This document shows positions 1,422-10,474 of a DNA stretch of 12,736 nucleotides, piece after piece. The notes beneath the pieces were generated by a model. The model was not told the origin of the DNA. It did not search any database and worked only from the letters and a program-made list of their open reading frames with translations. A program made the position numbers and the translations under genes. The stretch comes from a candidate division WOR-3 bacterium (GTDB taxonomy: Bacteria > Hydrothermota > Hydrothermia > B15-G9 > WFZT01). The stretch is from positions 1 to 12,736 of the forward strand of contig JALUEE010000064.1 in NCBI GenBank assembly GCA_027053075.1, in the 5' to 3' direction. The first letter of the stretch is position 1, and each line of letters begins with the position of its first letter.

Positions 1422-2681
1422 TTAGTGTGTTCCTTCTTCCCAGCTTGTTAGATAGTACTTTTGCTCCTCGGTAAGTTTATCAATCTCAATTTCCATGGAA
1501 TGGAGCTTCAGGCTTGCAATCTCTCTGTCAATCTCATCGGGTAAGGTATAAACCTTTTTCTCGAGCCTGTTCCGGTTTTCCTTTATATACTTCACTGCGC
1601 GCGCCTGATTGGAGAATGACATGTCCATGACCGTTGGGGGATGCCCCTCTGCAGAGGCGAGATTTACCAGCCTGCCCTCTGCCAGCAGATAAATCCTCTT
1701 TCCATCTGGTAAAGTGTACTTTTTCACATTGGGCCTTACATCCTCAATCGAAACGGCCATCTTTCTCAAGCCAGCGACATTGATTTCGACATCAAAGTGG
1801 CCGGAATTTGCAAGAATTGCCCCATCTTTCATCTTCTCAATGTGAGATAGGTCAATGACATTCTTATCCCCTGTTACTGTCACAAAGAAATCACCAATCT
1901 CTGCCGCTTTTTCCATAGGCATGACCTCAAAGCCATCCATGACTGCCTCAAGTGCTCTCACTGGATCAACCTCTGTGACAACTACCCTCGCCCCCATCCC
2001 TTTCGCGCGCATTGCAAGGCCTCTCCCGCACCATCCATAGCCGGCCACCACAAAAATTGAGCCAGCGATCAGTAAATTGGTGGCCCTCAATATGCCATCT
2101 ATGGTTGATTGACCTGTTCCATACCTATTGTCAAATAGGTACTTTGTCTTTGAGTCATTTACTGCAATTATTGGGTACTGGAGAACACCGTCCTTTTCCA
2201 TTGCACGGAATCTGATAACACCTGTGGTCGTCTCTTCCGTCCCACCCCAGACTTTTCGTGCAAGCTCCGGAAGTTTGCTATGTAGATATGCTGTGAGGTC
2301 ACCCCCATCGTCCAGGGTGACAACGGGTTCAATCTCAAGGACGTTTTTGATATTTTCGTAATATTCATCGGCCGAATCACCGTGCACGGCAAAGACTTCG
2401 ATGCCATAATCTTTGACAAGTGACGCAGCAACATCATCTTTTGTGCTCAGGGGATTTGAAGCCGAGAGCCTCACATGGGCACCAGCCGCTTTGAGCGTAA
2501 TCATCAGTGCAGCCGTCTCTGGTGTCACATGAAGACAGGCCCCGATATTCATGCCTTCAAAGGGCTTTTCCTTCTCGTATTCCTCTCTAATTTTTGCAAG
2601 AACAGGCATGTGGTCCATTGCCCACTCGATCTTCTTTTTCCCAGATTCGTTTAAAGACAAATCTTTAACCCTGTATTTCAT
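1422..2681 (-). CDS. ahcY: Adenosylhomocysteinase (SAH hydrolase), 419 aa
   Basis: Motifs [53 protein letters not shown] (NAD-binding), [15 protein letters not shown] and [11 protein letters not shown]. Start reassigned from TTG 2726 to ATG 2681 (MKYRVKD), which has GGAGGT 5 nt upstream (2692-2687). Confidence 0.97.
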
Positions 2682-2703
2682 TCGTGACCTCCATTTTTTG
2701 CAA

Positions 2704-2733
2704 ATTATAAAGCAGTTTGACAGCACGCGTCAT
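2704..2733 (-). promoter_or_regulatory. Putative ahcY promoter
   Basis: Minus strand perfect TATAAT (2709-2704) with a partial -35 ATGACG (2733-2728) at 18-nt spacing, just upstream of the ahcY SD. Confidence 0.6.
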
Positions 2734-2745
2734 GAATAATATAAG
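2717..2745 (+). promoter_or_regulatory. Putative prpD-prpB promoter
   Basis: TTGACA (2717-2722), 17-nt spacer, TATAAG (2740-2745). Predicted +1 at about 2752-2753. Confidence 0.7.
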
Positions 2746-2752
2746 TAATGCT

Positions 2753-4099
2753 ATGGACGAGTATCTTCTCATAATAGCCCAGTACTCGCTCCACCCCTTC
2801 AAGCTCAGTGAAAATGCCAAAACTGAAGTAAAGAAAAGGATTATTGACACCTTTGGGGTTGCTATCGCTGCTCTCCCCCAGCTAAAACCCTACTTTCAGA
2901 AATTCCCCTTCGCTCAGGCCTCCAAAGGCTCAAGCATTCTGGGTGCCGATGTAAAGGTTTCGCCAGACCATGCAGCTTTCTTCAATGGTTTTTTGGCAAG
3001 GTACCTCGATTTTAACGACACTTATCTTTCAAGAGAGCCCCAGCATCCTTCAGACGTGATCATGCCTCTTCTTGCACTGGCAGAATTTAATGGAAATTCA
3101 GGTGCTGAGCTTATTGAAGCCATCGCAGTCGCCTACGAAATAGACACGGCGCTTTGTGACTGGGCAAGCCTCAAAGCCAATGGATGGGACCATGTTAACT
3201 ACATCGGAATTGCCACCGCCGCAGCCGCTTCAAGACTACTTAAACTTACGCTCGAGCAAACCATGAACGCAATTTCCATAACCGTGACGTCCAACATATC
3301 GACGCGACAAACGAGAACTGGCGAAATTTCCATGTGGAAAGGAGCAGCCGCAGCAAATTCTGCCAGAAATGCTATCTTTTCAACACTAATAGCATCGACT
3401 GGTATCACAGGACCTCGCGAACCTTTCACAGGTCCTTTTGGATTCATAAATCAGTTGCTACATCGCGAGAAACTGAATGAAAGAGCATTTGATAGGTTGA
3501 AAAGTTTTCCGTCCCCTGAGCGCATTCTGGACACACATATAAAAGTCTACCCTGTTGAGTACATGGCTCAGGGAGCTATCGAGGCTGTGCTCTCTTTGGA
3601 CGTATCACCAGCCCAAATAAAGAGAGTGCTTGTGGAAACATTCGAAATGGCGTATAGTATCCTTGCAAAGGATAGCGAAAGATGGAAACCTGAAACTCGA
3701 GAAACTGCCGACCATTCACTTCCCTACCTTGTTGCTCGTGCTCTCTTTGATAAAACGATAAATGAGGGCTCGTTTACTGCAACCAAGATAAAAGACCCGG
3801 GATTGAGAAAATTTATAGAGGAGAAAGTAGAGGTACAGGTGAATAAAAAGTACTCTGAAATGTATCCAGAGTTTCTGCCGACAAAAGTCAGGCTTGAGCT
3901 CGAGGACGGCAAGGTAACAGAGCGAGAGGTACTCGTACCCCGTGGGCATGCGAAAAATCCTCTCAACACTGAAGAAGTCCTTGAAAAATTCAGGAAAATT
4001 GCCGGTGATAAACATGAGTTTCTCGACCTTGCTTTCCATCTTGAAGAAGTAAAAAATCTGGATTTGATTTTCAAATCTTTAAAACCTGGAGGTTTATGA
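2753..4099 (+). CDS. prpD: MmgE/PrpD family protein, probable 2-methylcitrate dehydratase, 448 aa
   Basis: Motifs AAFFNG..RYLDFNDT..HPSD, AYEI, GWDH, RxGxxSMWKG, ADHSLPY and PRGHxxNPL, adjacent to prpB. Start reassigned to ATG 2753 (MDEYLL) because the track's TTG 2717 is the -35 box. Confidence 0.88.
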   Translation: MDEYLLIIAQYSLHPFKLSENAKTEVKKRIIDTFGVAIAALPQLKPYFQKFPFAQASKGSSILGADVKVSPDHAAFFNGFLARYLDFNDTYLSREPQHPSDVIMPLLALAEFNGNSGAELIEAIAVAYEIDTALCDWASLKANGWDHVNYIGIATAAAASRLLKLTLEQTMNAISITVTSNISTRQTRTGEISMWKGAAAANSARNAIFSTLIASTGITGPREPFTGPFGFINQLLHREKLNERAFDRLKSFPSPERILDTHIKVYPVEYMAQGAIEAVLSLDVSPAQIKRVLVETFEMAYSILAKDSERWKPETRETADHSLPYLVARALFDKTINEGSFTATKIKDPGLRKFIEEKVEVQVNKKYSEMYPEFLPTKVRLELEDGKVTEREVLVPRGHAKNPLNTEEVLEKFRKIAGDKHEFLDLAFHLEEVKNLDLIFKSLKPGGL

Positions 4100-4998
4100 T
4101 GAAAATTTTTGAGGTAAGAGACCTCGATGCAGGAGTTAGATTGAAGGAAGCCCTCTCAAGGGGAGAAACAATCGTGGCTCCTGGAGTATTCAACCCAATA
4201 TCCGCAATGCTCGCCAAAAAACATGGATTTAAAGCTATTTATCTTTCCGGTGCGGCATTAACTGCCAGCTATGGCCTGCCTGACCTGGGACTTATCACCC
4301 TTGATGAAATCCTCTACATGGTGCGAAAAATCTATTCGATAGTGAATTTGCCCATAATTGTGGACGCAGATGTAGGCTTCGGTGGGGTCCTGAATGTTGC
4401 AAGAACCACGAAAGAACTCGAAGAGGCTGGAGCCGCTGCAATGCAGATCGAAGACCAGGAAATGCCCAAAAAATGCGGACATTTGAGTTCGAAAAAGCTG
4501 ATACCGGCAGAGGAAATGGTTTACAAAATCCGGGCAGCAAGGGAAGTTAGAAAGAACTTGCTCATCATAGCTCGAACAGACGCAAGGGCGGTTGAGGGGC
4601 TCAGGAAAGCCATTGAACGTGCGCAGATGTATGCAGAAGCTGGAGCAGACATAATTTTTCCTGAAGCACTGATTAGCAATGAGGAATTTGAGCTTTTCAG
4701 GCGGGAAATTCATATTCCACTCCTCGCAAACATGACTGAGTTCGGTCGCACACCTTACACCACTGTGAAAGAATTCTCTGAAATGGGCTACAACATAGTG
4801 ATTTTCCCCGTTACAGCGTTGAGAATGGCCCTAACTGCAATCGAGGATACATATAGAGAGCTCTCAAAGAAAGGCACCCAAAGAGATCTCTTACCCCAGA
4901 TGATGACGAGAGAAGAACTCTACCGTCTTATCAACTACTACGATTACGAGGAATTTGATAAGGAATTGAGCGGGAAAAAGGATGATTGGATTAGATAA
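4099..4998 (+). CDS. prpB: 2-methylisocitrate lyase
   Basis: ICL/PEP-mutase family motifs YLSGA, GLPDLG, VDADxGFG, IEDQxxPKKCGH (PrpB-type catalytic loop), ARTDA, IFPEAL and LANMTEFG. SD GGAGGT at 4088-4093 favours ATG 4099 (TGATG overlap with the prpD stop); ATG 4096 is the alternative. Confidence 0.93.
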   Translation: MKIFEVRDLDAGVRLKEALSRGETIVAPGVFNPISAMLAKKHGFKAIYLSGAALTASYGLPDLGLITLDEILYMVRKIYSIVNLPIIVDADVGFGGVLNVARTTKELEEAGAAAMQIEDQEMPKKCGHLSSKKLIPAEEMVYKIRAAREVRKNLLIIARTDARAVEGLRKAIERAQMYAEAGADIIFPEALISNEEFELFRREIHIPLLANMTEFGRTPYTTVKEFSEMGYNIVIFPVTALRMALTAIEDTYRELSKKGTQRDLLPQMMTREELYRLINYYDYEEFDKELSGKKDDWIR

Positions 4999-5839
4999 GC
5001 GTGTTCAGGGCAAATACCGGTGTGCCAACTGGCTTGCCGAGCCTTCTTGACACGACTCCACACTTGATTTGAAGGAGCAGGAAAACTTCCCTCGATGCAT
5101 CATCAAGGGTCTCAAAATTTGCGTGCCCCTTGGCAAGCACAATATCTGCTGAGTTGAAATGCTCCATAAACTCTTCGCTCACCTCTTTAAAGTCAACTCC
5201 GAGAGCATCGGAACCGGTTTCGATTACTTTGATTCCGCTGATATCCAATCCCACGAGGTCATAAGCGGTAACGTCATTTAAAACGGGCCCGCTTTTTACA
5301 GCGAGGAGCTTTTCTTCCACGTCGAGGTTCTTTAAAAAGTAAATATCAAACACCACCTCACCCGCGTTGTCTGCAATGAGGAGGAATTTTCTGGCATTCT
5401 GCAGTTTTTCTTTAAAAATGTCGTAGTGGTCAATGCCAAAGCCTATCTCAAAATTTCTTTTTAAGGTTTCAATGACGTCAAATTTATCCTGAGTTCCGAG
5501 GTCAATGATGTTCCCTGAGGCCATTAAAATAAGCCTGTATTTTAGAGGGTCTTCTGAAGTCTCTACCTGATCACGAACTTTGTCCAGGATATCCAGAGCA
5601 AGACTGTTGTGCTCTTTTTTAAACTCTCTATAGGGGTCTTTAACCGGAAAGTACTTGCTACCCGTTCGTATCGAACGGGTAGCAATGTACGCCGGTGAAT
5701 AATTTAAGTCCAGTCCTTTGATATATTCCCAGGATTCCTTGATGGCATCCAGGATAACTTCATCATCCATCCCCGCTGCCCTCATAAGACGTAACACCTG
5801 ATTGAGGGCACAGGGAAAACACTCAGGACCCGCTTTCAC
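4991..5839 (-). CDS. DUF89/ARMT1-like metal-dependent (damage-control) phosphatase
   Basis: N-terminal ECxPC, DPYxxxK, GNIID, DNAGEVVFD, KxGPxLND, KGxANFETL and C-terminal KC. The GTG start overlaps the upstream stop (GTGA). Confidence 0.88.
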   Translation of the reverse strand: MKAGPECFPCALNQVLRLMRAAGMDDEVILDAIKESWEYIKGLDLNYSPAYIATRSIRTGSKYFPVKDPYREFKKEHNSLALDILDKVRDQVETSEDPLKYRLILMASGNIIDLGTQDKFDVIETLKRNFEIGFGIDHYDIFKEKLQNARKFLLIADNAGEVVFDIYFLKNLDVEEKLLAVKSGPVLNDVTAYDLVGLDISGIKVIETGSDALGVDFKEVSEEFMEHFNSADIVLAKGHANFETLDDASREVFLLLQIKCGVVSRRLGKPVGTPVFALNTLI

Positions 5840-7878
5840 TTGCTTTCTTCCTGCTCCTTCTTGGCTTCTTCGATTATTTTCTGAGCGATCTCCTTTGGCA
5901 CTTCCTGATAGTGAGAGAACTTCATTGTGAATGTGCCACGTCCCTTTGTAATGGACCTGAGAGTTGATGAATATTTGTAAAGCTCTGCAAGAGGCACATG
6001 GGCCTTGATTACCTGCATCTTTCCTTCGGCTTCCATCCCGAGGATTCTACCACGACGTGAATTCAGGTCACCAATCACATCTCCCATGTACTCCTCGGGA
6101 ACCCTTACCTCGACCTCATAAACAGGCTCAAGGAGGTACGGGTCTGCATTGGCCTCAGCCTCTTTAAATGCCATGGAGCCAGCAATTTCAAAGGCAAGGT
6201 TAGACGAATCAACCGGATGGTACTTTCCATCATAAAGGGTTACTTTGACATCAACAACCTTATATCCCGCGAGTACACCCTTCTCCATGGCCTTTTTAAT
6301 TCCGGCCTCAACAGATGGGATGAACTGTGATGGAATCGCCCCGCCAAAAATCTCATTAACAAATTCGTATCCGCCACCGCGTGGCAGGGGCTCTATTTTT
6401 ATGTAACAGATTCCATACTGACCGTGTCCACCTGTCTGCTTAACATACTTACCCATTGCTTGTGCAGGCTTACGGATGGATTCACGATAGGGAATCTTGG
6501 GCTTGGAAGTGTCCACATTCACCCCAAACTTATCTCTGAGCTTTGAAACAATCACATCAAGATGAATCTCACCAAGACCGGAAATTAATGTTTGCTTGAG
6601 CTCAGGGTCGTAATGAAATTCAAATGTCGGGTCTTCGTCTCTCAATCTTGAAAGACCTTCTGAGACCTTTTCCTGGTCTTCTCTGGTCTTCGGGACAATG
6701 GCCACGGAAATCGTCGGGTGCGGAAATTCAATACCTTCGAGAACAACAGGTCTGTCTTTGGAACAAAGAGTATGGCCGGTCTTGGTTTCCTTGAGCTTTA
6801 CAAGCGCGCCAATCATTCCAGGGATGAGCTTATCTGTCTCTTTTCTTTCCTTACCCCGGACGAGATAAACCTGGTTGATCTTCTCGGTGCGCCCGAGATT
6901 TGCATTCAAAACCTCGGTTCCAGGAGTGAGTGTTCCTGAATAAACTTTTATGAGGTAAAGCTCTCCAACATGTAGCTCTGAGATGGTTTTGAACACAAGG
7001 GCAACAAGGGGTTCATTGGGATCAGGTTTAATTTCAATTTCTTCATCCCCCGCCTTGCCAATTTCTTTAGGAGCATTGAGAGGAGAGGCACCATATTCAG
7101 CAATAAAGTCCACAAGCTCCTCAACACCTATCATTTCTTTTGCCTCTCCAAAGAGCAAGGGGATAATATCACCACTGATGATACCTTCTCTCAGTGTTTT
7201 GGCAAGCTCGTCTGATGAAATTTCCTCGCCTTCCATATACTTTTCGAGGAGCTCCTCAGAAAGCTCAATGGTGGCCTCTTTCAACTGCTCGGCCCACGCT
7301 TCGGCCATGTCTTTGCATTCGGCATCAAGGGATGAGAGGTCACCATTGACGAGGTCAAATACCCCTTTGAACCCTTCACCCGAGCCGAGAGGAACCTGCA
7401 GGGGAACAACTCCGTTTCCAAAAGTATCCTTAAGCTCCTGAATTAGGGCATCCACGTTAATTTCAGGGGATTTCATTTTATTGACAAAAATGATCCTTGG
7501 AATCCCCCTCTTCTTTGCAATTTCATAATATTTTTCAGCCCCCACCTCGACACCGGAGGACGCATCAATGACAACCACTGCATTATCCGCGGCCCTTAGA
7601 CCTGCTGCGACCTCACCTGCAAAATCAAGATAACCTGGTGTATCAATAAGATTTATCCATTTCCCTTTCCAGTCGAAGTAGGCCACTGCGAGATTAATGG
7701 TAATCTTACGTTTAACCTCTTCTGGATCGAAATCAAGGATGGAATTTCCCTGATCCGGACTATTTAAACGGCTTGTGACTTTTGCCTTATAAAGGATTGC
7801 CTCAGCAAGGGAAGTTTTACCTGAACCACCGTGGCCAATAAGAGCGAAATTTCTGACAGCACTCACATCTAAACTCAT
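5836..7878 (-). CDS. fusA: Elongation factor G paralog (EF-G2-like), 680 aa
   Basis: G1 GHGGSGKT, switch I RKITI, G3 DTPGY, domain III EDPT and GLGEIHL, domain IV KQTGGHGQYG, GGAIP and YHPVDSS, domain V LLEP..GDLNSRRG..LRSIT.GRG. SD AAGGAGGA at 7891-7884. No rpsL/rpsG/tuf neighbours and divergent G motifs, so a paralog rather than the housekeeping fusA. Confidence 0.93.
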   Translation of the reverse strand: MSLDVSAVRNFALIGHGGSGKTSLAEAILYKAKVTSRLNSPDQGNSILDFDPEEVKRKITINLAVAYFDWKGKWINLIDTPGYLDFAGEVAAGLRAADNAVVVIDASSGVEVGAEKYYEIAKKRGIPRIIFVNKMKSPEINVDALIQELKDTFGNGVVPLQVPLGSGEGFKGVFDLVNGDLSSLDAECKDMAEAWAEQLKEATIELSEELLEKYMEGEEISSDELAKTLREGIISGDIIPLLFGEAKEMIGVEELVDFIAEYGASPLNAPKEIGKAGDEEIEIKPDPNEPLVALVFKTISELHVGELYLIKVYSGTLTPGTEVLNANLGRTEKINQVYLVRGKERKETDKLIPGMIGALVKLKETKTGHTLCSKDRPVVLEGIEFPHPTISVAIVPKTREDQEKVSEGLSRLRDEDPTFEFHYDPELKQTLISGLGEIHLDVIVSKLRDKFGVNVDTSKPKIPYRESIRKPAQAMGKYVKQTGGHGQYGICYIKIEPLPRGGGYEFVNEIFGGAIPSQFIPSVEAGIKKAMEKGVLAGYKVVDVKVTLYDGKYHPVDSSNLAFEIAGSMAFKEAEANADPYLLEPVYEVEVRVPEEYMGDVIGDLNSRRGRILGMEAEGKMQVIKAHVPLAELYKYSSTLRSITKGRGTFTMKFSHYQEVPKEIAQKIIEEAKKEQEESK

Positions 7879-7915
7879 AATCGTCCTCCTTAATGGATTT
7901 CAAAAATTGGCATAA

Positions 7916-7945
7916 ATTATAGACTTCCCTCAATTTTGGTGTCAA
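7916..7945 (-). promoter_or_regulatory. Consensus sigma70 promoter of the EF-G paralog/DUF89 operon
   Basis: Minus strand TTGACA (7945-7940), 18-nt spacer, TATAAT (7921-7916); both hexamers are perfect. Confidence 0.85.
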
Positions 7946-8044
7946 CTTAAGGGAAAATGTTCCCCTGGTTATTTTTTAGCTGTGAATAGATTGACCAGAG
8001 AAGTGAGGTTAAACAAGTTTCACCAAGCATGATAAGTTGCGAAA

Positions 8045-8395: not shown

Positions 8396-10474
8396 CTAAA
8401 ATGGTATTGCCCAGCGGATTTTTACCGCTGCTATGCTCTCGCTCTTCTCAAGTTCATTTTCTCCCTCCTGATATGCCTGGTTAAGCACGATATAAAACGT
8501 AGATTTGGGCATAAACTGATATTTAAACCTCAGTCCAAACCTCACACTTCCAACGTCCCACTTATTCTGGTAGTAGGGGACCGTTTCCACTGTAATAACC
8601 ACACTCTTTTCGGGGTCAAAATAAATTCCAATACTCGGACGAAAACTCAAGAATATCTCCTCCACATTGTTCGTCTTCCCAAGCTCCACCCAATAATTAA
8701 AATCCTCCATAAACGAAACGTGGTCAGTTATAGAAAAATTCCCCCATACACCACCGTTGAAAGTCCAGCCAAATAAATTGAGCCGGTAATTCCATTTCTT
8801 AGCAAGATTATTCCATGTTCCACAGCTAAATTTGCTGCTGTTTTTCCCAAACTCAAAGTGCCCCGTCCACGTCGTCCTGTTTACCCCAAAGTCATAACTA
8901 TTACCGATCCCTCCAAAACCTGAAATAACAAATCCACCTCTGAAATTTAATCTGCTAAAGAGTATAAGTGTTTTCTCATATACGTCTTCCCCATGCTTTT
9001 TGTTAATTATCACTTCAAAAGCTCGCATTACAAATCTCACCTTCTTACCTCTGGGGTATGTTACCTTTCCTCCTATAAGTCTTATCCATACTCCGGGGTC
9101 TTCACCCAAATAGCCCGTTGAATTCAAATTTAATTTCTCGCCAACATAACTAAACCCCACGCCTCCAAGGAAGCTTGAATAAAAGTAATCATAACCTATC
9201 CTAAATCCATTCCCCCACACTGTATCTGCCTTGGAGCGAACTCCCTGAAAAATTACCTCGTGTGGACCAGAGTTAAATTTACCATCAAGCGAAAAATTTG
9301 CATCAATGTTTGACGAATCCTTCCTTGAGGCGATCAAAACTCCTACAGTTGATTTACCCAGAGTTTTAAACCTGAATACATTCCACAAATAAGCAGGCTC
9401 ATAATCTGAATCACCATAGTGGACACCTTCTGTGTAGATGCCCATATAACCAATCTGGCTTTTTGAAGTTTTGGCTGTGAACTTTGCCCCAAAGAGAATG
9501 GGAACCTCTGTTCCATCTGGAAGTCTCCTCCCGATTCTTCTCGAATAAAACACGTGGAATGGCCAAAAAACATCTCCGAAGGTGGTTCTCACAGGCTTGA
9601 ATATCTCATTTGCTTCTACGAAGAATGGACGTCTCTCACGTAAGTATAGCTCATATTTCGATAGATTCAGTGCAAAGGGATCTGCCTCTATCTGGGCAAA
9701 ATCAGGCTTAAAAGTTGTGTTGAGAATAAAATTCGGTGAAATGTTCCAGTTGAAATCAAGTCCAAAACGAGGCCTGGTTTTACCCTTCCCCACACCATAA
9801 TCTTCATTTTTAACAAGACCAACAGGATAAAACTCCATTCCCATTCCGCGAGTTCCGGGCTTAATAGCCTCGAGGATTCCGTAGGCTGAAACCCTCTCCT
9901 GATACTCTTTGGGTGGTAAAGGCCAGTAATCAACTTCATGGAGGTTAGGGATCCATCTTTTCACCTGCAAGCCCCATTTCGAAATGCCAGCCTTGTACCT
10001 GATCGATCTGAAAGGGATTTTAAGTTCTGCCACATATTTGTGAGGATAAGTCTTGACCTTCGCGAACCAGTATCCATCCCATGCCGAATTCTTTCTCGCT
10101 CCGTTATCAGAAATGACACCATCTTCTTTATAACCGGGTGCAGAGACCCGGAAATAATACGCATCCTGCCTTGAAAAAACAGGATCAAGATAAATAGTAA
10201 CTCCATCGTTCGATCCGGAAAGTGTGGCCATTAGCTTTCTTTTTCCTGTATATGCAACAGCGAGGATATAGAGGTTTGACTCATCCTGCAAAAATTTAAC
10301 CACAGTTTTGTAAGTAGCAGGTTCACCGTAATCGGGAATAAACTGCTTGAACTCGTAAATCGAATCAGCAGTAGTCCAGATAGAATCCACAATTCCGTCT
10401 AATTTCGGAGCCTTTGCAACTGCCTTCACGGATACACTGTGAAGGGCAGCTACCAATAGCAAACCTAACAGCAT
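8396..10474 (-). CDS. Secreted/outer-membrane protein with an N-terminal CBM9-like domain, DUF5916-like region and C-terminal beta-barrel
   Basis: Hydrophobic N-terminal signal peptide; APKLDG...W...T.V...D..NLYI...AELKIPF.SIRY...WG (CBM9/DOMON-like); PDFAQIEAD...L...ERRPFF.E...FYSRRIG (DUF5916 signature); alternating aromatic/Gly strands ending KIRWAIPF. SD AAAGGAGGT at 10488-10480. Confidence 0.8.
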   Translation of the reverse strand: MLLGLLLVAALHSVSVKAVAKAPKLDGIVDSIWTTADSIYEFKQFIPDYGEPATYKTVVKFLQDESNLYILAVAYTGKRKLMATLSGSNDGVTIYLDPVFSRQDAYYFRVSAPGYKEDGVISDNGARKNSAWDGYWFAKVKTYPHKYVAELKIPFRSIRYKAGISKWGLQVKRWIPNLHEVDYWPLPPKEYQERVSAYGILEAIKPGTRGMGMEFYPVGLVKNEDYGVGKGKTRPRFGLDFNWNISPNFILNTTFKPDFAQIEADPFALNLSKYELYLRERRPFFVEANEIFKPVRTTFGDVFWPFHVFYSRRIGRRLPDGTEVPILFGAKFTAKTSKSQIGYMGIYTEGVHYGDSDYEPAYLWNVFRFKTLGKSTVGVLIASRKDSSNIDANFSLDGKFNSGPHEVIFQGVRSKADTVWGNGFRIGYDYFYSSFLGGVGFSYVGEKLNLNSTGYLGEDPGVWIRLIGGKVTYPRGKKVRFVMRAFEVIINKKHGEDVYEKTLILFSRLNFRGGFVISGFGGIGNSYDFGVNRTTWTGHFEFGKNSSKFSCGTWNNLAKKWNYRLNLFGWTFNGGVWGNFSITDHVSFMEDFNYWVELGKTNNVEEIFLSFRPSIGIYFDPEKSVVITVETVPYYQNKWDVGSVRFGLRFKYQFMPKSTFYIVLNQAYQEGENELEKSESIAAVKIRWAIPF

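Follow-up and report, generated by a model that had tools for sequence, protein, structure and literature searches.

An EF-G2 paralog of candidate division WOR-3 that lacks the guanine-reading aspartate of G4 and carries an acid in G5

The aspartate of the G4 motif (NKxD) is taught as a fixed guanine determinant of translational GTPases, and in laboratory mutants of EF-Tu and Ras its exchange for asparagine shifts the specificity to xanthine nucleotides. IFT22/RabL5 reportedly binds guanine nucleotides without a classical G4 by way of an Asp in G5, an observation attributed to Wachter and co-workers in 2019, and according to a citing paper it was co-purified with GTP; unlike the factor described here, it is a eukaryotic small GTPase. 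In the complex of EF-G with GDP, as described in the accessible text of PMC8446442, the G4 Asp accepts hydrogen bonds from N1/N2 and the side chain of the G5 Ser contacts O6, which places both side chains at one base edge. The closest described relatives of our protein are the EFG II paralogs. The main text of Margus, Remm and Tenson (2011, PMC3150367) calls both G4 NKxD and G5 gSAx conserved in EFG II, lists Gly16, Leu25, Thr291, Gly333 and Lys352 (1WDT numbering) as type I positions, and treats EFG I, or the spdEFG pair, as indispensable. Other EF-G paralogs without the catalytic His, as ours, are EF-G2 of B. thetaiotaomicron (PDB 8DMF/7UVP) and of M. smegmatis (9K0Z). The published accounts that we consulted report little or no ribosome-dependent GTPase activity for the two, slow translocation by the Bacteroides protein, and an accessory or stress role for both beside a canonical EF-G. 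The G4 changes named there for the M. smegmatis protein are N to T and M to L, and the Asp is not among them.

The window examined here, a 12,736-nucleotide stretch of DNA from a candidate division WOR-3 bacterium, encodes an EFG II (EF-G2-type) elongation factor G paralog of 680 amino acids and five domains (5836..7878, minus strand; assigned from the ORF, NCBIfam and Pfam). In an NCBIfam profile search this protein scored 889.8 bits against NF009381 (cut-off 583). An AF2 model with a mean pLDDT of 89.4 was matched by Foldseek to EF-G structures at TM up to 0.94 (7n2v), and model and match together confirm the EF-G fold. The protein shares with the EFG II subfamily (PMC3150367; NF009381; T. 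thermophilus EF-G-2, PDB 1WDT/2DY1) the five domains, a location outside the str operon, an intact domain IV, the loss of RGITI, the exchange of the catalytic His for Tyr and all five type I markers, which map to G15, L24, T298, G342 and K361 by way of an alignment with T. thermophilus EF-G. In our tree it groups with Tyr-type paralogs, with a support of 100 against the canonical copies. The features of canonical EFG I (AHIDAGKT, RGITI, DTPGH and usually a place in the str operon) are absent, and although the score against TIGR00484 (684.5) exceeds the cut-off of 659.4, motifs and context do not fit EFG I. The protein also falls below the NCBIfam cut-offs of the Bacteroides family (595 of 1000) and the M. 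smegmatis family (626 of 890).

The first three G motifs follow the EFG II pattern, as judged from an alignment of the 147-member WOR-3 clade defined below. The G1 P-loop reads GHGGSGKT (residues 15–22; 7813..7836, minus strand) with the Gly at first position typical of EFG II, and its G20-K21-T22 is present in all 147 rows. G2 is RKITI (57–61; 7696..7710, minus strand), with Thr instead of the Ser of the xxxSx consensus; the Mg-contacting Thr/Ser is retained in 142 of the 147 rows (Ser100/Thr42/Gly5), and E54 in every one. G3 is DTPGY (79–83; 7630..7644, minus strand), in which D79-P81-G82 is invariant (147/147) and the His site is Tyr in 113 rows and Phe in 34. These non-canonical G1, G2 and G3 motifs are ordinary EFG II hallmarks. 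The changes in G4 and G5 are not, because NKxD and gSAx are the motifs that PMC3150367 calls conserved in EFG II. Our protein carries NKMK in G4 (133–136; 7471..7482, minus strand), without the guanine-reading Asp, and GEA in G5 (244–246; 7141..7149, minus strand), where the Ser has given way to an acid that may have become the guanine reader. Both motifs align without gaps opposite NKMD and GSA of T. thermophilus EF-G. The pair NKxD and gSAx is not a subfamily-specific marker; it is nevertheless the state described for EFG II, from which this protein departs.

The first-pass annotation had read these motifs from AAT AAA ATG AAA (7482-7471, N133-K134-M135-K136) and GGA GAG GCA (7149-7141, G244-E245-A246), and both readings are exact. 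A contig from sequencing run X1, which possibly represents the source sample, shows 0 differences from positions 6900-7950, and among the differences listed for three other runs none falls within the seven G4/G5 codons. All five other genomes of the genus also encode NKMK and GEA, several of them with synonymous codons. Since run X1 and the five congeners agree with the window, we can eliminate a sequencing or assembly error. The gene is not decaying either, as the same annotation had argued from its intact domains: GKT and DxPG persist in 147/147 rows, the fold is modelled with high pLDDT, dN/dS amounts to 0.01-0.06 where dS is computable, and within the genus the G core has a pN of 0.04-0.07 against a pS of 0.6-0.76. 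These substitution patterns indicate that the EF-G2 paralog is under purifying selection. An organism-wide change of nucleotide can be excluded as well, since the EF-Tu, LepA and IF2 of this genome (all NKID) and its two other EF-Gs retain NKxD. The named close homologues of the paralog come from candidate divisions WOR-3 and TA06; an Atlas search with it returned generic EF-G fragments.

To describe the spread of the G4/G5 change we combined 30 loci from 41 relatives, 120 database homologues and 80 hand-picked regions, mostly the best match per family, from a search of 262 genomes of the phylum (240 positives). Rows no longer than 600 aa were omitted, as were four loci that were duplicates or broken and a further 7 duplicates; the 228 rows retained were used for a tree built without the G4 and G5 columns. 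One clade with a support of 99 comprises 147 of these rows, some of them near-duplicates. In this clade position 245 is an acid in 144/147 rows (Asp115, Glu29, other 3), and position 136 is occupied by K73, T33, G11, A9, R7, S6, D4, N2 and E2. The G4 Asn also drifts (S19, T15), the G4 K134 is retained in 137/147 rows and the G5 Ala/Ser in 138/147, and the position two residues after the G5 Ser site is L50/K39/Y16 and others. By comparison, none of the 73 outgroup EFG II rows has an acid in G5, and their G4 position is D56, E10 and N7. As a check for query bias we picked 19 further EF-G regions by domain IV, including five further families, which brought the families sampled to 39/43. Eighteen of these regions are EFG II, mostly from the five lower-scoring families, and all 18 have Asp or Glu in G5; the remaining one is canonical. 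A metagenome pattern scan that permitted D/E at G4 matched at least 120 loci; among the 80 matches listed, 13 have a non-acid G4, all of them with an acid in G5 and at least 69% identity to clade members. Judged from these alignments, loss of the G4 Asp with an acid in G5 is a phylum-wide trait of WOR-3 EF-G2, found in nearly all sampled relatives. Neither the G4/G5 swap nor the WOR-3 EF-G paralogs are described in the literature that we searched, an incomplete coverage in which supplementary alignments (e.g. of PMC3150367 and PMC4342817) may show them.

Two side observations concern the same alignment. Family f4 (L055, L056, L414) has an EFG II on a long branch whose G domain has eroded much further (GQPLSGKTY; TQYS in G4, with N and K lost; VES/VDG in G5), and the checked genomes of this family also carry a second EF-G with an intact domain IV. 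In domain II of P0001 (residues 301-363), E301, H303, E306, G320, N335, R345, V360 and K363 are clade-specific and conserved; these residues, unlike those of other EFG II, may mark altered ribosome contacts.

How are the two sites coupled? Among the 228 rows the acid is found at G4 only in 77, at G5 only in 141, at both sites in 3 and at neither in 7. The corresponding counts are 141, 2, 4 and 1 for 148 cluster representatives with both sites, drawn from among the 150 matches listed in a 50%-cluster search. With the motif columns left out of the tree, parsimony gives three changes of the G5 acid. Two of these are losses, and in both the G4 Asp is back: P0024/P0029 have NKMD with GCA/GSA, and L084 has SKVD with GNS. 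An AU test rejected the exclusion of these revertants from the clade (p-AU 0.0006, 30 rows), which speaks against their being basal rows, and windowed identity favours the clade in 17/18 windows with one tie, leaving no obvious recombination. A sister lineage outside the clade carries both acids (L161, L177, L208 and P0284, NKxD with GDA). Inside it lies P0282 with NKLS and GEA, and its placement with the WOR-3 rows was rejected (p-AU 2.7e-9, 22 rows); the G4 Asp was therefore lost independently there. From these placements we infer that lineages with a G5 acid lost the G4 Asp at least two times, and that it came back where the G5 acid disappeared. An independent-pairs test of G4 against G5 gave three pairs changing the same way, none opposite and four without difference, which are too few events for significance (p=0.25). 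Seven outgroup EFG II rows (P0037, P0041, P0042, P0066, P0072, L033, L034) have a natural Asp to Asn change in G4 and no G5 acid (NKMN with GAA or GSA, SKLN with GAG or GAA), so the acid is not always needed. The first-pass annotation had proposed a compensatory charge swap. Its compensatory part is borne out by the return of the G4 Asp at both losses of the G5 acid. The specific Lys/Glu pair is not: Lys and Glu occur together in 21/147 rows only, and it is the G5 acid, not its G4 partner, that is conserved.

We lean toward the reading that the G5 acid replaces the G4 Asp as the reader of guanine N1/N2, in a factor that would still bind GTP/GDP and be competent for translocation. Of the options raised in the first-pass annotation this is the second, that the Glu takes over base recognition, and it is likely the best. 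The G5 Ser would have changed to Asp first, so that for a time this acid and the G4 Asp faced one base edge together. The G4 Asp, no longer needed, could then have been replaced through drift by Lys, Thr, Gly, Ala or Arg, with K136 as one of several tolerated fillers and no required partner. With the G4 Asp out of the way, an Asp or Glu at the G5 Ser position should be able to contact N1/N2. Hydrolysis by the protein is probably slow or intrinsic, as it is in other EF-G2s that lack the His. If either acid suffices, the double-acid forms, the drift at position 136 and the reversions are all explained; the G4 site behaves, as far as its alignment column tells, as if freed from constraint. Asp or Glu from outside NKxD reads N1/N2 in 61/298 guanine complexes, according to the accessible text of PMC11594714.

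We consider it distinctly less probable, as the main rival reading, that specificity has relaxed or switched, with the G5 acid taking adenine N6 (or reading only N1-H) and the loss of the G4 Asp lifting a block against adenine N1, such that ATP or any purine triphosphate (ITP, XTP) could serve. An acceptor lost at N1 and one gained near position 6 would be just what adenine requires, and since the G5 Ser normally donates to O6, a carboxylate could repel O6 and suit adenine N6. The available text of PMC7952092 offers a precedent in SpoIVA, a natural ATPase in which the G4 Asp is replaced by K/H/N/R at a poorly constrained position and N, D or S is most often found at the G5 Ser position; an Era changed to NSxR and SAE hydrolysed ATP and not GTP. 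FeoB is described in PMC11406355, as far as its accessible part goes, as having its ATP use tuned jointly by G4 and G5 residues. SpoIVA and the engineered Era-ATPase resemble our protein in the TRAFAC fold, the preserved G1-G3, a variable polar G4 and an acidic G5. On the published description, however, SpoIVA is no translation factor, has lost the G4 Lys that is retained here (137/147), and has its decisive, tested acid two residues after the Ser instead of at the Ser, a position that in our clade is mostly Leu, Lys or Tyr. Of the SpoIVA-like set of a lost G4 Asp, a lost G4 Lys and an acid at Ser+2, WOR-3 EF-G2 shows the first only. The Ala/Ser of G5, which reads O6 through its backbone amide, persists in 138/147 rows, and the double-acid forms and the two full or near-full reversions to NKxD with a Ser-like G5 are simpler with an unchanged nucleotide.

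It seems improbable that the G5 acid is purely structural, capping the G4 turn, with weak GTP binding by way of the phosphates, stacking and the O6 amide; the coupling would then be that of a swapped hydrogen-bond pair in which base recognition is uninvolved. Relaxed G domains are known for EFG II (PMC3150367, main text), the G4 Asn drifts in the clade, and seven outgroup rows manage with neither acid. Against this stand the 20/147 rows with Gly or Ala at G4, which could not pair with the acid and still keep it, and the coincidence of the acid losses with the return of the G4 Asp. Least of all do we expect the other option of the first-pass annotation, a K136-E245 salt bridge that fills the base pocket and leaves a nucleotide-free pseudo-GTPase: Lys with Glu is invariant in this genus and frequent in its order, 80/147 rows combine a basic residue with the acid, and some EF-G2s are reported to lack ribosome-dependent GTPase activity, but 67/147 rows have no basic partner (T33, G11, A9, S6, D4, N2, E2), M. 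smegmatis EF-G2 is described as still binding guanine nucleotides, and GKT, DxPG and E54, complete in 147/147 rows across the phylum, are unexpected for an empty site and leave no degenerate P-loop or Walker B. The 21/147 count of Lys with Glu, set beside an acid in 144/147, rules out an obligatory salt bridge.

We then turned to the question as to what this factor may do beside the other EF-Gs. Domain IV of the paralog scores 157 bits against PF03764 and has both translocase loops intact in the alignment, loop I as KYVKQTGGHGQYG (477–489; 6412..6450, minus strand) and loop II as DGKYHPVDSSNLAF (550–563; 6190..6231, minus strand). The genome encodes two further EF-Gs with canonical G1-G5, a str-operon fusA (L257:1005-3092, G000:C42) with a degenerate domain IV and an orphan copy (L258:1190-3292, G000:C56) with an intact one (160 bits). 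The str fusA and 17 related copies (L117-L130, L132, L134, L136), 14 of the latter directly before tuf, have canonical G motifs and have lost loop II and most of loop I, several retaining the GG of loop I; two str-operon copies score 47 and 39 bits against PF03764. The str-operon fusA of this class resembles a recycling-only EF-G in these features and would presumably be unable to translocate. Loss of loop glycines explains the translocation defect of mitochondrial EF-G2 in the accessible text of PMC9067457.

A single strong domain IV match was obtained in 27 of the 40 class genomes with a completeness of at least 93%. This match is the EFG II in 26 of the 27; in the other, G040, a canonical copy provides it, and a contig end truncates the EFG II. 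The remaining 13/40, this genome included, have two or more intact domains IV. A third EF-G was not found in the GTPase inventories of five genomes that are 98-100% complete, two of them in 3-4 contigs. Since the domain IV of the str-operon EF-G is degenerate, EF-G2 may be the working translocase in most sampled genomes of the class. The term sole translocase does not apply to the genome of the window, because it has the canonical C56 copy, which could share or hold this job. In 93/105 genomes from other classes, two or more copies are intact even though the swap is present there too; the pocket change is thus of greater age and extent than the apparent exchange of roles. The division of labor recalls that of spdEFG1/spdEFG2 (Borrelia) and mitochondrial EF-G1/EF-G2 in its apparent split between a copy with an intact and one with a degenerate domain IV. 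It differs in that recycling would fall to the str-operon fusA, whose G1-G5 are canonical, and translocation to the rewired EFG II.

The orphan canonical EF-G of the C56 type is patchy in the class: the class inventory shows it in families f1, f4, f8, f9 and f10 but in none of f2, f3, f5, f6, f7, f11 and f12. The only intact-domain copy of genome G001 (L005:1323-3362), otherwise a 90%-identical orthologue, has an in-frame TAA at codon 214, where a 95%-identical database protein has Tyr; this stop may be an assembly error or mark a pseudogene.

The gene is preceded by a promoter-like site with a full match to the sigma70 consensus (TTGACA-N18-TATAAT, 12/12; 7916..7945, minus strand) and by a Shine-Dalgarno-like AGGAGG 6 nt before the ATG (7885..7890, minus strand, by direct reading). 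Such a 12/12 site was found before the gene in 10/10 loci examined at the level of the order, with differing spacers, and is absent from 20/20 loci of other orders, one of which has an 11/12 and one a 10/12 match. A DUF89/damage-control phosphatase-like gene (4991-5839, minus strand; below the NCBIfam cut-off) overlaps the EF-G2 stop by 4 nt, and this linkage recurs in 7/30 loci, in families f1 and f2 only. Elsewhere in the window, a 692-aa ORF (8396-10474, minus strand), whose start resembles a signal peptide and which matched nothing in NCBIfam, lies downstream of genes for an ABC transporter ATPase and a membrane protein. In the region made up of 2717-4998 (plus strand) and 1422-2726 (minus strand), a prpD-like gene (below cut-off) is paired with prpB (above cut-off), divergent from ahcY. 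At about 1000-1200, short ORF translations resemble the antisense of tRNA genes.

The EFG II family itself is known; new here is that a textbook motif has been rewired across a phylum, and possibly in an essential factor. Published EFG II retain the motifs that are both changed here across the phylum, and published EFG I is held to be indispensable, in contrast to the 26/40 class genomes in which only the EFG II has an intact domain IV. The finding amounts to one EF-G without the G4 Asp across a whole bacterial phylum. Its natural states (G4 only, both, G5 only, reverted) map a mutational path and give ready test pairs, and a cultured WOR-3 strain exists according to the accessible text of PMC12285271. 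That the same His-less EF-G2 is the sole EF-G with intact loops in many genomes bears on the role of GTP in translocation, which is debated in the literature as far as we have consulted it, and would run counter to the published opinion that EFG II is no substitute for EFG I. A bolder proposal, to which we give little credence, is that in most of the WOR-3 class the everyday translocase is an EF-G2 without catalytic His and guanine-reading Asp that runs on ATP or any purine triphosphate, with the GTP-using str-operon EF-G reduced to recycling; an ATP-run EF-G2 would be a natural non-GTP translation factor. If its use of GTP is normal, WOR-3 EF-G2 would be a neat specialist case of pocket rewiring, and if it is not, a major exception in translation.
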